DNA from: Candidatus Rifleibacteriota bacterium
GTDB lineage: Bacteria > Muiribacteriota > Ozemobacteria > Ozemobacterales > Ozemobacteraceae
Length of the DNA: 11,497 nt
NCBI GenBank assembly: GCA_051747585.1
Contig: JBNJGH010000104.1
Span: 1 to 11,497 of the forward strand
Direction: 5' to 3'
The number at the start of each line of letters is the position of its first letter. Position 1 is the stretch's first letter. The notes under the pieces were generated by a model. The model did not search any database. It was given only the letters and a program-made list of their open reading frames with translations, and was not told the DNA's origin. Made by a program: the position numbers and the translations under genes. Of the stretch, positions 709-9,565 are shown in pieces.

Positions 709-3700
709 CTACAATTTACATATAAATCTGGCAATAGTTCTGAAATTGTCTGGATTTACTGGTATCTCTTTATAGGCTTTATTTTGTGAAACCAGATAAT
801 ATTTACCTGAAGAATCTTTTTTGACTTTTTTTAATGCATAGGCAGTGTTGCCTGAATTATCAGTAAAGCCAACTGCTATTATTTGCCCCTGAAGGCTTCC
901 GGCGGAAAGAGGTGTAATTGGTTCAAGAACTACCAAGTCTCCATTCGATATTGGTTCTTTACCACCATCCATTGAATCACCTGATATTTTGACAACAAAC
1001 TGATTTCTTTCAGGACTAATTTTTCTTTTTCTTTTAACCTTAATTTTTTCGGAAGAGTTTTCAAAAATTCCTGTATTAGAAATGTTCCCTGCAGCTACTT
1101 TTATATTTGTATAAAAAGGAAGTTCCAACAATTTTTCTTCATTGTCACTGATATTTTCCAAATCATTTTGCGGATTAAGGTTTTCAACCTCTTCTAAAAT
1201 TTGCTTTTCTGCAGACACTTTTTTATTATCATTTGCAAACATATTTTTATTTTTGCGATAAAAATAAGCGGCTAATGCATACTCTACCCTATCTTGAATC
1301 AATTTTCTAAATTTTAAATTATTCCACCAGTCTTTTAACTCATCACAAATTTTAAAGCTATTGTTTTGATCTTTTTTAAGTTCAAAATAACTTTTGACAT
1401 TTTTTTTCTTTCGACCATGACCGGCAAGCTTAGCTAAAGGCATTTCCTTTACAAGCTTCATAAAGTTTTTTAATGAAACATTTTTATTACCATTATTTTT
1501 ATTAAAAATAGAACAGTCACTTTGATGCGAAGGATGAGTCAAATAATAGTTTCGAAATTGTCCTGCGATCCATTCTAAATGCCAGGATGTGCGCCTTTGA
1601 GTATCTTTTAACAGAACTTTGAGAACTACCATCTTATAAGATTTATTTGGAGCGAGTTCTTTTTCTATATGCTGCAAAAAATTGGCTGCAATTGTTCCAG
1701 TTAAAGATTTTTCAAAATCCGTTAAATCCTCAGCTTTTTCTTTGACTGCAAGCCAGTTTCCAAAACATTTAATAAAAGCTTTGGGTTCTGCAGCTTCAGG
1801 GTTGGCAAGAAAATCAAGTAAAGTCGGTGATCTTCCAAGTAATTTTTTAAGTCTTTTATATTCATCAATCAATAGCTGTTTACGCGATTTTGCTGCAAAG
1901 GTTTTTTTAATATCATCATGCCAAATTTTATAAACTTTTTTGTCTGCATCAACATAACAACCTGCAGGCAATTGAAAATCTAATGTCGCTTTAAGCGCTT
2001 TATCAGCATTGTGGGAATATTGCTGATTAAAAATCAAAGGAGTGATATAGGAATTACGAAAGTTTCCAATGAAGTCCAGCACTACAAGAAATTCTTTTCC
2101 CGGTGTCTTTCGCAAGCCTCTGCCAAGTTGTTGTAAAACTACCGAAAAAGATTCTGTCGGACGCAACATCAAAACATGGCTCACAGAAGGAATGTCCACG
2201 CCTTCGCCGAGAATATCCACAGAACAGATTACATTTAAGCTATCAGATTCATTTTGCAATCTGGCAATAGCTTGTTTTCTTTCGGCTTCTGTTGCTTCGC
2301 CAAGAAGGGCAACAGAATCAAGCCCGGCTATTGAGAACTTTTTGCTCATATAATTTGCGTGGCCTTTATTGGAGCAAAAAGCAAGAGCTTTAATTTTTCC
2401 TTGAGAAGGTAAAAAGCTTTTCAGGTTTTTAATAATCAACCCTGCTCTGGTATCATTTTCGAGCGCAGCTTCAAGCTGGCTTTCATCATAGCCCCGGCCT
2501 GTCCAACGGATGTTTGAATAATCGGTTTTATCATAAATTGCATAATACTGGAAAGGTGTAAGCCAACCTTGATCTATTGCAGAAAATAGTCTTGCTTCAT
2601 AAGCAATTTCGTAATCACAAATTTCCAGGACATCCCTTCCATCCATTCTTTCAGGGGTTGCCGTTAGACCAAGTAAGAATTCACTATTAAAATGCCTGAG
2701 AATTGATCGATAAGTTCTTGCCTCACTATGATGGAATTCATCAAAAACTATGTAATCAAAACGATTTGTTGCAAAAAGCTCAAGAGTAGATGCCCTGGAA
2801 AGAGTTTGAACCATTGCAAAAACACTACAATCAGAAACAGCAATCGCCTTTTTTTGCCCCAGGTTATTTTCTCCCGTAAGCAAAAGACCAAATGAATCTT
2901 TTTGCAAAACTTCTCTGAATACTTCCCTGGCTTCACCTAATATATTGGCCCTGTGCACAACAAACAAACATCTTTTTAATTTGCTTTGCTCAAAATCAAA
3001 TGCTGCAAGATGTGTTTTCCCCAGCCCGGTGGCAGCAATAACTGCAGCTTTTTTTATTCCTTGTTTTCGACGCTGCGCCAGCTCGCAAAGAGCATGTTTC
3101 TGCGCTGGTCTGGGAGAAGGCTTACCTGAATTTTCAAAATCAACTTCAAGCTCAAGTTGCAACCTTCTAACAATCTCTCTTTTTTTAAATTGTTTTCTGT
3201 AAGCTTCCAGAAATGAATTATTTATAAATACCGACTGCTGCTGCCAATATCCTTGAAAATCTTCCCGAGCCCTCTCAAACACTGTTTTTGAACTACATTG
3301 TTCGAAAGCCAGATTTATTTCAGAGTTAGAATAATAATTCCACTCTTCGTTATTAAGCAAACCACCTCCTGTCATATTTGAAGAACCAATTACAAGAGAA
3401 TTGTGCCCATCTGGTTTGGAAAAAAGAAAACATTTAATATGAAAAGACGGTGGTTGTTTCTTAAAGTCAACATTTTCATTATCCGGGTAAAAGACCTTTA
3501 ATTCTAAATTTGGAAAAAGCTTTACAAGGTGAATAAGATCATCAGGATCATTAAAGCAATTCATCGTAGAAGTTAGAATTTGTAATTGCCCGCCCCTGGC
3601 AAGAAACTTTTCAATATGTCTTTGTAACAAGTTAATCATGCCACGGCTTAGAAAGGCACTGGCGATCATACATTCTACTGATTCTGACAATTCCTGAATA

Positions 3701-4122
3701 AGAAGTTCCAACAAAGTTGGCTTACTGGAATTACTTACAATAAAAGGATTCAGTAATTTTCCTTCGCTTAAGGAGACTGTATCTTTTTCGCTGCTACTAT
3801 AGACAGCATGCAAATAATCGCGGTTTAAAAATCTTCCTCGGCTTAAAGCTCTATTATTTCTTGTTTCTTCTATTTCTTCTTTAGAAACCTTATAATAATC
3901 TGCCAGTGCATTTATTATTTCAATCACATCAGCAGCTTCTTTTGTAAATTCTTTCTGATTATTGCTTTGAAATAACTCATGAGCTTCTTCTATCAGTTTC
4001 AACTTGAGAAAGTAAGCATATTCCTCGGTTGTAAGCTGTTTCTTTATGGACTTTTTGCCACTGTTTGAAATTATTTCGGCAATTTTGTCCCTGACCAGTT
4101 TGCGGTAATAGATTGGAGGCAT
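709..4122 (-). CDS. Multidomain putative restriction/defence enzyme: MazG-like NTP pyrophosphohydrolase + PLD (HKD) nuclease + SF2 (ResIII-like) helicase + unassigned helical domain + S24/LexA-like peptidase; SauUSI-like core
   Basis: N-terminal KLVRDKI...KLIEEAHE...KEAADVIE (all-alpha NTP-PPase). FHIK...IGSSNMT...NEEWN (single PLD motif, His at 3439-3441). Walker A AATGLGKT (~3013-3036), DEFHH (2728-2742), GLTATPER, QQLGRGLR. C-terminal LPFY...VAAG, GDSM (970-981), ALKK. ATG at 4122 (MPPIYYRK, GGGAAG upstream) is preferred over the TTG at 4173 used in the ORF track. Confidence 0.88.
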   Translation of the reverse strand: MPPIYYRKLVRDKIAEIISNSGKKSIKKQLTTEEYAYFLKLKLIEEAHELFQSNNQKEFTKEAADVIEIINALADYYKVSKEEIEETRNNRALSRGRFLNRDYLHAVYSSSEKDTVSLSEGKLLNPFIVSNSSKPTLLELLIQELSESVECMIASAFLSRGMINLLQRHIEKFLARGGQLQILTSTMNCFNDPDDLIHLVKLFPNLELKVFYPDNENVDFKKQPPSFHIKCFLFSKPDGHNSLVIGSSNMTGGGLLNNEEWNYYSNSEINLAFEQCSSKTVFERAREDFQGYWQQQSVFINNSFLEAYRKQFKKREIVRRLQLELEVDFENSGKPSPRPAQKHALCELAQRRKQGIKKAAVIAATGLGKTHLAAFDFEQSKLKRCLFVVHRANILGEAREVFREVLQKDSFGLLLTGENNLGQKKAIAVSDCSVFAMVQTLSRASTLELFATNRFDYIVFDEFHHSEARTYRSILRHFNSEFLLGLTATPERMDGRDVLEICDYEIAYEARLFSAIDQGWLTPFQYYAIYDKTDYSNIRWTGRGYDESQLEAALENDTRAGLIIKNLKSFLPSQGKIKALAFCSNKGHANYMSKKFSIAGLDSVALLGEATEAERKQAIARLQNESDSLNVICSVDILGEGVDIPSVSHVLMLRPTESFSVVLQQLGRGLRKTPGKEFLVVLDFIGNFRNSYITPLIFNQQYSHNADKALKATLDFQLPAGCYVDADKKVYKIWHDDIKKTFAAKSRKQLLIDEYKRLKKLLGRSPTLLDFLANPEAAEPKAFIKCFGNWLAVKEKAEDLTDFEKSLTGTIAANFLQHIEKELAPNKSYKMVVLKVLLKDTQRRTSWHLEWIAGQFRNYYLTHPSHQSDCSIFNKNNGNKNVSLKNFMKLVKEMPLAKLAGHGRKKKNVKSYFELKKDQNNSFKICDELKDWWNNLKFRKLIQDRVEYALAAYFYRKNKNMFANDNKKVSAEKQILEEVENLNPQNDLENISDNEEKLLELPFYTNIKVAAGNISNTGIFENSSEKIKVKRKRKISPERNQFVVKISGDSMDGGKEPISNGDLVVLEPITPLSAGSLQGQIIAVGFTDNSGNTAYALKKVKKDSSGKYYLVSQNKAYKEIPVNPDNFRTIARFICKL

Positions 4123-4217
4123 ATATTTGGGCTTCCCGGAAATTGTTATGAAAATAACGCTATCATCTGGCAAGCAAGTTGTAAAATTGCTTGCAGTATT
4201 TATTTAGTATAATCAGG

Positions 4218-4808: not shown

Positions 4809-4928
4809 AAATATTTCCTCCCGGTTAACTATTATTAAGTTAATGTTCTTCAAGTATATTATCAGTAATTATCTATTTAGAATATTAGCAAATTTTAAAA
4901 CATTATTGTATTAAATGATTTTTGCACC

Positions 4929-4982
4929 ATGGTCATTTCGACGCTTCGACTGCGCTCAGCGCAAGCTTCGCTCAATGACCAT
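4929..4982. repeat. REP-like palindrome (family 1 host) interrupted by a 24-bp module at 4943..4966
   Basis: atggtcat-ttcgac-[gcttcgactgcgctcagcgcaagc]-ttcgctca-atgaccat, with 8-bp perfect terminal inverted arms. Removing the bracketed part gives a 25/26 match to the empty copy at 9138..9163. Confidence 0.9.
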
Positions 4983-5068
4983 TATATAATAACATACTGT
5001 TGCGATCTTTCAGCGGAAGCAAAGGAACCATTAATCTTTATTTAATGCTTTTTTATTTTGGTTCATAG

Positions 5069-5653
5069 TCAAACGACTCTGGTAAAGCCGGGGGCGCTGT
5101 AAATATTGTCGGGGGGAATGACTTTCTGACCAAGGAATTGGGTTGGCTCGATGCCGGCCTGGTAATGTCTGAATAAATAATTGATTACTTCGGTGCAACT
5201 GAAAGCTGAGGCATCATCAAAGTTGAAGTCGAAATCATATTCAAGCCCTACTATTTCTTTGATCTCCTGCTCCATTTCCAGGTGATTTACAGGAAAAAGC
5301 GGTCTTAAAACGCAGACATGGTCGGTTTTCATAAAATCAAACAAAGACTCACGGCAAACCCCATCAGAAGTGGCATGAACTATAGTAGAGAAAGGGCCGT
5401 CAGCTTTTTCGCATATTGCGGCATGATTCCACCAGCCGGGAATGAAAACTTTGTCGACATAGGTGTCGTAACGTCTTAACAAAACATCAAATCTGTTAAT
5501 GTTTCGAGCAACCTTTTTAAAGTTGTCACCCTTAATTTTATAACCTTTCGGATGATAAAGAAAAAAAAGAGGATAATTATAAAGCCTTATATCACCAAAA
5601 AAGGTGAAAAGCTTATTTTTAAAATCTTTGGTAAGTTTTTTAATTTTTTTCAT
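5069..5653 (-). CDS. Permuted papain-like NlpC/P60 (YiiX/YebB/YaeF-like) cysteine hydrolase
   Basis: Catalytic His before Cys: PGWWNHAAI, IVHATSDGV, GLEYDFDF, FSCTEVI, and C-terminal PDNI. Confidence 0.85.
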   Translation of the reverse strand: MKKIKKLTKDFKNKLFTFFGDIRLYNYPLFFLYHPKGYKIKGDNFKKVARNINRFDVLLRRYDTYVDKVFIPGWWNHAAICEKADGPFSTIVHATSDGVCRESLFDFMKTDHVCVLRPLFPVNHLEMEQEIKEIVGLEYDFDFNFDDASAFSCTEVINYLFRHYQAGIEPTQFLGQKVIPPDNIYSAPGFTRVV

Positions 5654-5697
5654 TTTTTATTCCAAGTATCCAATTTAATTTTTTATAGAGAAATTTA

Positions 5698-5755
5698 GAG
5701 ATTGCTTCGTCGCTTCGACTACGCTCAGCACAAGCGCTACGCTCCTCGCAATGAC
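5698..5755. repeat. REP-like palindrome (family 2 host) interrupted by a 24-bp module at 5712..5735
   Basis: gagattgcttcgtc-[gcttcgactacgctcagcacaagc]-gctacgctcctcgcaatgac. The host has attgc/gcaat arms; the insert is 22/24 identical to 4943..4966. Confidence 0.85.
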
Positions 5756-5764
5756 ACCCTGTAT

Positions 5765-5790
5765 GGTCTCTGAGCGGAGTCGAAGAGACC
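5765..5790. repeat. Uninterrupted family 1 REP-like palindrome, inverted orientation
   Basis: ggtctc-tgagcggagtcgaa-gagacc. The core is the exact reverse complement of the ttcgactccgctca core of 9138..9163, with different but self-complementary arms. Confidence 0.88.
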
Positions 5791-5805
5791 CTGTAACCAT
5801 CCATT

Positions 5806-5856
5806 GGTCATTTCGACGCTTCGACTGCGCTCAGCGCATCGCTTCACTCAACCACC
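5806..5856. repeat. Family 1 REP-like host (degenerate right arm) interrupted by a 25-bp module at 5818..5842
   Basis: ggtcat-ttcgac-[gcttcgactgcgctcagcgcatcgc]-ttcactca-accacc; 5806..5838 is identical to 4931..4963. Confidence 0.88.
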
Positions 5857-5865
5857 AAAATATTG

Positions 5866-6876
5866 TTACTTAACACCGCCGAGGCTTTTTATGAGCTGAA
5901 TGGTTGATTTTTGTTTTTGTGCGATAGCACATTTAAGAGGTGTATCTTTGCTGATTTTGCCGCGCTTGTTAATGTCTGCCCCCTTTTCAACCAGGTATTT
6001 GACCATGTCATCAGCACCACGATGAGCTGCATGGTGCAAGGGGGTAGTTTCGCCATAAGCAGCTGCATTTACGTGGGCTCCAGCTTCAACCAGAAGCTTA
6101 ACCATTTTGAGGTCAGACTTTTGAGCAGCATAGTGTAGAGGTGAATAGGTAAATTTGCGATCATAGTTTCCTGCATAGGAAGAATGCCTGGCAAGTGACT
6201 CGAGTTCATAAACATTGGGTTTGGCACCATTTTCAATAAGAAATTTTGCTACTTCATAGTGATTATTTTCAGCGGCAAAGTGCAGCGGCGTTTTATTGTT
6301 TTCGCCATAAATATTTGCATTGGCTCCGTTTTCGACCAGAAATTTAACAAATTCGAAATTTCCATCGGCAGCAGCTGCATGAAGTGCAGTATATTCGGCA
6401 GATTTGCCTTTTTCGTTCAGGTTGAATTTGTGCATGGAAAACAGCTTTTTGGCCAGATCATAAAGCTTCAGGCGGGTTGCAAGAATAAAAAGATTGCCGG
6501 CATCGTTTCTTTCATAAACATGGGCACCCTCTTTTATCAGCATTTCAGCAATATCTAAGTTCTTAAAACCGATTGCATAATAAAGCGGGCTTTTTCCGCT
6601 GATTGAACTTTTATCGTTTTTGTTGGGATCGGCCCCCAGCTCAAGAAGTGCTTTGGCAACCTCGGGTTTCCCGAATTTGGCGGCAAAATGAATGGGCATA
6701 TGTTTTGTTCGCCGCGATAAGCTTTTAAGAAGCTTTTTATCGGCTTTTATCATTTTTGTAACTTTTGCAACATCGCCCGCTCTTATCGCTTTAAATATTG
6801 GCTTATCTTCGGCAGCAAAGTTTACAGGTAAAAACAAAGAAAGAAACAACAGTGTTGTAATTAAATACTTGTTCAT
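5866..6876 (-). CDS. Secreted ankyrin-repeat protein (~336 aa, about 8-9 repeats)
   Basis: Repeated TPLHxAA...VKxLxExGAxxN units. Start moved to ATG 6876 (GGAGG at 6883-6887), which gives a Sec-type signal peptide MNKYLITTLLFLSLFLPVNFA. Confidence 0.92.
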   Translation of the reverse strand: MNKYLITTLLFLSLFLPVNFAAEDKPIFKAIRAGDVAKVTKMIKADKKLLKSLSRRTKHMPIHFAAKFGKPEVAKALLELGADPNKNDKSSISGKSPLYYAIGFKNLDIAEMLIKEGAHVYERNDAGNLFILATRLKLYDLAKKLFSMHKFNLNEKGKSAEYTALHAAAADGNFEFVKFLVENGANANIYGENNKTPLHFAAENNHYEVAKFLIENGAKPNVYELESLARHSSYAGNYDRKFTYSPLHYAAQKSDLKMVKLLVEAGAHVNAAAYGETTPLHHAAHRGADDMVKYLVEKGADINKRGKISKDTPLKCAIAQKQKSTIQLIKSLGGVK

Positions 6877-6991
6877 TATTTTCCTCCAAATTTTGATTAG
6901 TAAAAGATTATCGCGAAATTTAAGCGTTTTCAATTAAAAATCTGAACTGGCTTAAAATTTAAATTAAGAATAACTGACCGCGCGTAGCAAG

Positions 6992-9137: not shown

Positions 9138-9163
9138 GGTCATTTCGACTCCGCTCAATGACC
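9138..9163. repeat. Uninterrupted (empty) family 1 REP-like palindrome
   Basis: ggtcat-ttcgactccgctca-atgacc, 26 bp. Confidence 0.9.
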
Positions 9164-9183: not shown

Positions 9184-9233
9184 CGTCATTAAGATGCTTC
9201 GGCAACGCTCAGCACGAGCTTAGCTCAATGACC
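9184..9233. repeat. Degenerate family 1 host interrupted by a 24-bp module at 9196..9219
   Basis: cgtcat-taagat-[gcttcggcaacgctcagcacgagc]-ttagctca-atgacc; same total length (50 bp) and insertion register as 4931..4980. Confidence 0.8.
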
Positions 9234-9246
9234 AAAAGAAGAATTG

Positions 9247-9456
9247 CACCACGGAGGCCTCAGAGAGCACGGAGCTGATTTTCAATCTTTTTCAGCCAGG
9301 GATTGTCCGAGGGACAATCCGCCGGCGGTTTCACCGCCCGGCTTTTCCATTAACAGCAGAACTTCAGAAAAACACCAGTGTTTTTCTGAAGTTCTGCTGT
9401 TAATGGAAACAAAGGCTGAAAAAGACTCTCTGTGTAACTCTGTGATCTCTGTGGTT
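9247..9456. repeat. Composite palindromic element bounded by inverted triple heptamers (CACRGAG x3 ... CTCTGTG x3), MITE/REPIN-like
   Basis: Left heptamers at 9250, 9259 and 9268; right heptamers at 9428, 9438 and 9447. Perfect 12-bp stem 9286-9297/9414-9425 enclosing hairpins at 9300-9320, 9321-9342 and 9344-9409. Confidence 0.8.
9344..9409. repeat. Perfect inverted repeat with 32-bp arms and a 2-nt spacer
   Basis: tttccattaacagcagaacttcagaaaaacac-ca-gtgtttttctgaagttctgctgttaatggaaa, checked base by base. Confidence 0.97.
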
Positions 9457-9565
9457 AATTTTTCTTGTCTTTGTGGTTTTGTGTGGGGCTTCTTATTATT
9501 TAGAAATCACTGATGGTGATTGCATAGGCATGGCCGGACAAACGGAATTTTTTTTAAGTTAGAAA

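Follow-up and report, generated by a model that had tools for sequence, protein, structure and literature searches.

A 24-nt piece of DNA in the genome of a Candidatus Rifleibacteriota bacterium is a non-coding, independent insertion with fixed ends, which is present at some orthologous sites and absent from others. Its distribution is wide but patchy, and its target shows no signal other than a single pyrimidine, which in most cases is the same base as the first one of the insertion. We refer to this piece as the module, and we started from the copy in a stretch of 11,497 nt (contig JBNJGH010000104.1), which is called the window here and holds the following repeats:

5711..5734, minus strand: the 24-nt mobile hairpin module, with ends taken from copies in unique sequence; an alternative placement reaches up to 5715-5738.
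5698..5755, minus strand: host repeat of family 2 (host C), a CGTC-like REP palindrome with its tag at the 5755 end.
5765..5790, plus strand: an empty family-1 (A-type) hairpin, whose head is the module's head; it stands tag to tag with host C.
5806..5856, minus strand: an A-type repeat with mismatched arms (a chimera), with a 25-nt module variant at 5817-5841.
4931..4980, minus strand: an A-type repeat holding a 24-nt module at 4942-4965.
9138..9163, minus strand: an empty A-type repeat.
9185..9233, minus strand: a degenerate A-type repeat with a module at 9195-9218, for which a single placement is possible.

On the minus strand the module consists of a 4-nt leader and a hairpin with a 4-bp base stem, a putative tandem G-A mismatch and a GNA loop, and at 5698..5755 it interrupts the 3' arm of the hairpin formed by host C on the same strand. 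The sequence-only reading had stated that deleting 5712-5735 restores a 34-nt palindrome. This holds exactly for the 58 nt at 5698-5755, and the uninterrupted 34-nt host has two exact copies in the same genome and none in a reversed control. Furthermore, the inner 32 nt of the empty host C occur in 18 exact copies, or 49 with up to two mismatches (none in the reversed control), and variants of the empty host are listed among the 234 elements parsed in this genome. The junction, described before as shiftable by 1-2 nt, actually has five equivalent placements, with the deletion starting anywhere from 5711 to 5715, because 5711-5714 is identical to 5735-5738. The natural ends, as defined by copies in unique sequence, are 5711-5734, and therefore the TTCGTC noticed to the left of the junction precedes it only in the register shifted by one base and not at the natural ends.

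A contig from a public DNA run spans 4934-5728, including the first 18 nt of the module, thus the window site was not created by the assembly. In that run, whose contigs break there at the repeats, an empty allele of the site was not seen. The window copy possibly represents one hairpin insertion event, perhaps aided by the 4-nt match. A comparison of 4850-5900 with Rfam gave five hits below threshold and no real match. Regarding the rest of the window, a perfect 32-bp inverted repeat with a 2-nt loop lies at 9344-9409, within short direct repeats at around 9245-9460, and an ORF of 1154 residues at 709-4173 (minus strand) resembles a nuclease-helicase fusion. A protein that has ankyrin repeats and a likely signal peptide is encoded at 5866-6933 (minus strand) and ends 10 nt from the repeat cluster; all its NCBIfam matches were below the cut-off.

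Throughout the genome we counted 73 module copies, defined by a filter on the hairpin head plus tail, in four kinds of repeat site and in tandem arrays. The left flank was A-type in 33 copies and host B, a third host of 26 nt and the second most used site, in 28; three were at the window site of host C, five at another host-C site, close to its foot, and four in tandem arrays. Both flanks came from one host in 57 copies (31 A, 21 B, and two plus three at the host C sites), while 16 were chimeric, with unlike flanks, or had a further module alongside. The hosts are also found empty (A1 21, A2 23, A3 22 and B 37). In all four site types the module is placed in the 3' arm of the hairpin that the host forms on the minus strand, and no module of opposite orientation to its host was found in this genome. 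The 73 copies cannot be counted as separate events: filled hosts have multiplied as whole units too, and many copies surely spread within the host repeat. The four site types, on the other hand, require several separate insertion events, which bears out the earlier claim that the module inserted independently at least twice. It was also right that the module is neither a mere part of a 50-bp repeat nor a slippage product, given that the same host lies on both sides in those 57 copies and that the module stands alone in unique DNA elsewhere.

Variants of host C carry other loop inserts across the genome (for example at C18:12934 and C23:5361), namely a unit of 12 nt that is found more than 20 times, a longer nested hairpin found five times and an unrelated hairpin found four times. 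Possibly these are additional mini-elements that behave alike.

The module pattern was found in two of 41 genomes, that is, this genome and one of its 40 relatives, and among these relatives, with only one bearing the module, no nearby orthologous empty site was available for comparison. Orthologous sites were compared in other phyla. A Microcoleus gene of 904 residues holds the module in frame in 5 of 21 aligned orthologues and lacks it in the other 16; the bases at the junction are conserved, and an indel of 3 nt lies close by (of 40 other genomes, 20 were retrieved for this set). Similarly, a conserved Flavobacteriaceae gene has the module in one of 15 genomes, and several more copies lie within long open frames. 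A length of 24 nt keeps the reading frame, so the module adds 8-residue inserts to proteins in many phyla. Two comparisons said less about the ends: the insert of the filled gene L094 is 78 nt larger, which makes it uninformative on the ends, and in the topoisomerase-like gene L047 the region is variable, so that presence and absence are clear and the ends are not. The linker of the L047 gene has different repeat-like inserts in two other genomes (L634 and L636), which suggests that it is a tolerant hotspot.

These empty orthologues bear on an account with no dedicated mobility, in which the copies would be mosaics that arise where abundant repeats have short words in common and recombine or undergo gene conversion. 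Recombination of this kind does occur, as the 16 chimeric or multiple copies indicate, and the 4-nt repeat at the window junction is common to the filled host-B copies, so the window copy may have been transferred in this way. However, recombination fails to account for those copies in unique coding DNA whose orthologues are empty, and for the fixed ends in 238 unrelated contexts pooled from the matches listed in other genomes and viruses, among which 4-nt repeats at the junction occur at only 10. We consider it refuted as a general account and very improbable as the main process, although it explains the chimeras and perhaps the window copy.

Regarding the distribution, a scan of 185,579 genomes gave at least 120 module loci. 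The 80 named rows among the matches listed cover ten bacterial phyla and one Methanosarcinales archaeon, and viral contigs added 113 further unique junctions; among 301 Bacteroidota genomes, 13 match the module. Two Nostoc genomes have 42 and 18 copies, and one Anaerolineae genome has 34 copies of many stem types. In the first of these (G041, 41 of the 42 copies read) the module is nested in itself and in heptamer repeats, and the base after it is T in 38 copies. The same 24-mer is found within heptamer repeats on plasmid pNPUN02 of N. punctiforme PCC 73102, as the one full copy in two plasmids searched; a plasmid BLAST with a 35-nt query gave weak matches only. Two further observations concern coding copies: one ATPase-like Anaerolineae gene (L095:1131-1538) has two separate in-frame modules, and histidine-kinase-like genes of different Bacteroidota genomes (L086 and L101) have an in-frame module at seemingly the same position, one of the two with two tandem copies.

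The Nostoc copies recall a known class of repeats. Small dispersed repeats (SDRs) of 21-27 nt with sharp ends were reportedly described in Nostoc punctiforme by Elhai et al. in 2008 (Genome Res 18:1484), and SDR1 and SDR4 are said there to insert into heptamer repeats and into copies of themselves. With its 24 nt, its 25-nt variant and its sharp ends the module is within this size range, and it is likewise present in N. punctiforme, repeated in Nostoc genomes and nested in heptamer repeats and in itself. Since the same 24-mer lies in heptamer repeats on an N. punctiforme plasmid, the module is probably one of the SDR elements, an assignment made by size, organism and setting and not by consensus sequence. 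It differs in its range: besides ten bacterial phyla, the matches listed include one archaeon as well as viral contigs. The SDRs of Nostoc appear as cited work in the available passages of PMC3116915, PMC2884548, PMC4390886 and PMC5861425.

The fold of the module is supported by its variation. The three outer stem bases co-vary, with at least seven paired types. In the 113 viral copies the outer pair was Watson-Crick in 94 and a minus-strand G-T in 19, and a plus-strand G-T was never seen; the corresponding counts for the second pair were 108, 2 and 3 mismatches. The wobble G-T pairs occur on the minus strand only, and therefore it is the minus strand that folds. Among the copies listed all four bases occur in the loop. 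With standard DNA parameters either strand reaches only -0.5 kcal/mol, and the two are not separated. According to the available part of PMC13037366, only GNA triloops form DNA mini-hairpins, which are exonuclease-resistant and which standard parameters miss, and a related hairpin, GNNA, has a far lower stability as RNA.

Regarding the target, the sequence-only reading had proposed that a TTCGWC motif in a hairpin is chosen, by pairing with the module's own TTCGAC as in IS608. The motif precedes 29 of the 73 copies in this genome, and 21 of the 238 pooled copies sit inside another copy of the same head. However, 28 of the 29 are in the family-1 host, which contains the motif by descent, and host B, with its 28 copies, lacks it. 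Furthermore, among 120 host-C arms with TTCGTC only the window copy is filled at that site, apart from one chimeric copy with an odd tail that the head-plus-tail filter missed. In other genomes the expected enrichment of the flanks did not appear: TTCGWC precedes 6 of the 238 unique junctions pooled from the matches listed (5 of the 124 flank pairs among the matches listed and 1 of the 113 viral junctions), and 2 of the 41 copies read in the Nostoc genome. The pairing is not supported either, because the insertions into the head lie at six offsets and only 4 of the 21 are directly after the motif. Targeting through TTCGWC is therefore refuted. What stays of the comparison with IS608 is the hairpin-dependent movement of a single strand, whereas the target information is about one base.

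That base was seen as follows. In the 124 unique flank pairs among the matches listed, conservation stops at the 24-nt ends and information is about zero beyond one base on either side; a pyrimidine follows the insert in 106 and A precedes it in 68. Flank duplications in these pairs were rare (none of 4 nt, one of 5 nt, none of 6 nt and three of 7 nt). In the pooled set a pyrimidine follows in 202 of 238, and the base after the insert equals the module's first base in 155 against 98 expected, an excess that is not explained by flank GC and whose p values are overstated, as copies within a genome are not independent. This identity is not strict, since in 38 of the 238 the first base is T and the target base C. 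The junction continues a short-period repeat in 13 of 238 cases against 0.6 in shuffles, and insertions into repeats elsewhere were in the same orientation in 21 cases and opposite in 2. We also tried a rule by which the target base pairs with a stem base of the module. The raw table looked promising (T after 4 of 68 G-closed and 86 of 170 A-closed modules), but with the first base already in the model the rule brought no improvement (p 0.63), and it was rejected.

The module has fixed ends in many unrelated contexts, with neither a multi-base target nor a duplication. In one reading, an HUH transposase (Y1), of the type known from IS200/IS605 or RAYT, would move the module through a 24-nt single-stranded circle, which would be cut and rejoined after a purine at both ends. 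The precise insertion without duplication and the tandem arrays fit this chemistry, and HUH enzymes, as described in the available text of PMC8266576, are strand-specific, use a hairpin that has a stretch of 4 nt on its 5' side, and are able to join DNA. IS608 and the REP/TnpA-REP systems treated in the same text are thus like the module in being single-stranded, hairpin-dependent and free of target duplication; the module differs from them in lacking a four- or two-base target, a second end hairpin and a linked Y1 gene. By the guide rules published there, the leader would select a two-base site, and no such conservation was seen: the two-to-five-base target that a guide selects in IS200/IS605 and REP-RAYT elements is not found in the module's flanks. 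The one Y1 gene of this genome has none of the module or host repeats alongside, and no Y1 gene was found among 136 short ORFs near the 120 loci listed, so a Y1 gene flanked by the module repeat was found in neither. Similarly, the accessible part of PMC3733652 reports no tyrosine transposase flanked by CGTC repeats. We regard an HUH enzyme as unlikely. The Y1 gene itself (L003, G000:C196) is followed by a short tandem repeat and a distinct terminal motif, which are unrelated to the CGTC-like repeats.

To the same degree improbable is templated synthesis, in which a stalled polymerase or reverse transcriptase would jump to a free, stable 24-nt RNA or DNA template, copy it and return, leaving a one-base repeat. 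The one-base terminal identity is as this predicts, and the four site types lie in that arm of the minus-strand hairpin which would be the first to stall a polymerase. An RNA intermediate is also said to have been proposed once for SDRs. However, the GNA loop is a motif that stabilises DNA, with its GNNA relative far weaker as RNA, the 38 junctions with T then C do not suit strict one-base pairing, and no reverse transcriptase gene was found among the same 136 short ORFs near the 120 loci listed.

The hosts themselves resemble the CGTC REPs, which in the consulted passages of PMC3733652 have an unpaired CGTC or TGTC tag followed by AT, a stem of 8-9 bp and a loop of 4-5 nt. Our hosts carry the TGTC form of the tag and then AT (in host C at 5756-5751 of the minus strand), are intergenic and, like the repeats in those passages, form dimers and clusters. 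They differ in that their Watson-Crick stems are short and lengthened by G-A mismatches, and in that the loop has 3 nt; standard folding gives host C a 5-bp base stem and a 3-bp top stem, which is not the stem and loop of a CGTC REP, and therefore we file the hosts as CGTC-like only. The module, in turn, has no tag of the CGTC type. A passage search of PMC3733652 returned no modules nested in CGTC repeats.

A second known system is that of the Ssn nucleases. In the passages of PMC11893778 at hand, SsnA, a GIY-YIG nuclease, cuts only a tag-first single strand, just upstream of a CGTC-tagged hairpin; its authors raise an origin in mobile elements, and for Ssn these passages report cutting and no joining activity. 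The likeness to our case with the Ssn/NTS/SRM system of that source is in small single-domain GIY-YIG genes bracketed by hairpin repeats, seen in other genomes and not found in this one, in strand specificity and in conserved bases 5' of the stem. The difference is that SsnA, according to the same passages, cuts a few bases upstream of the tag, whereas the module ends at its leader. Searching with the SRM pattern, as given in the published part available, gave 15 sites in this genome against 6 in its reversed control, and the sites listed include neither a host nor a module.

The best enzyme candidate for the module is, by prediction, a small clade of GIY-YIG proteins related to Ssn. A Bacteroidota gene of this type (L157) is bracketed by seven hairpins with the module's head. 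Among its relatives, 35 of 80 metagenome loci have the same head close by, compared with 3 of 80 in reversed controls, and 14 of 27 loci from Bacteroidota genomes have at least two head copies against 0 of 27 controls. In the tree these relatives make up a clade of 70 rows (99/99 support, 99 columns) together with two genes flanked by repeats like host C. The L157-type gene is present in 6 of 12 module-bearing Bacteroidota and in 59 of 288 others (p 0.026, a weak test in which kin are not independent). Other observations fit less well: the module's leader differs from those of the hairpins beside GIY-YIG genes, an L157 match was absent from 5 of 18 module-bearing genomes, including the Nostoc genome with 18 copies, and in the one with 42 copies the match is distant only. 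No gene of the clade was found in our own genome, which is 93.6% complete; its single small GIY-YIG gene is placed outside the clade and lacks neighbouring repeats of the module or host type. As for a placement in CDD family cd10448, NCBIfam returned no name for the small GIY-YIG protein. A subclade of 31 rows in the same tree (L310-L389) is mostly without the A-type head.

The surroundings of the module pointed to no other enzyme. A Pfam scan of the 136 short ORFs near the 120 loci listed showed no recurring protein family, and the ORFs beside 17 viral loci had nothing in common by eye. A DUF559 nuclease was discarded as the enzyme, as there is none in this genome, and so was the IS110 element on C72 as the driver, which is inserted in a host-B repeat and holds no module. 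This element (L154, G000:C72:1-2585) sits at the tag end of the repeat, and a short piece resembling its end recurs in repeat clusters.

Thus, our leading reading, held tentatively at a little under an even chance, is that the module is a single-stranded DNA hairpin moved in trans by a hairpin-recognising enzyme, most probably an Ssn-related GIY-YIG protein, with joining at a one-base core. The minus strand would fold into a nuclease-resistant GNA hairpin, and the enzyme would cut beside the purine at the stem's foot. Once released, the 24-mer, as a linear molecule or a dumbbell circle, would be joined 3' of a purine in exposed single-stranded DNA, for example in the loops and 3' arms of other repeats. 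A bolder form of this is rather unlikely, namely that the clade of around 95-residue GIY-YIG proteins is a single-strand transposase and the 24-nt DNA dumbbell its minimal cargo with autonomous ends, which would spread among bacteria, archaea and phages with a one-base target and leave 8-residue inserts in proteins. In the literature searched, nothing links such modules to GIY-YIG proteins or reports a range across phyla.

The module is probably one of the smallest known mobile elements, probably of a kind already described in Nostoc, with a range much wider than reported. The available parts of the earlier work leave the CGTC repeats without a mobilising enzyme (PMC3733652) and have Ssn cutting and not moving them (PMC11893778). 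Here the module offers a minimal substrate: its ends are exact, the strand that folds is known and the target rule comprises one base. The mobility of repeats of 20-30 nt, a standing question, thus becomes testable with one oligonucleotide and one small protein.
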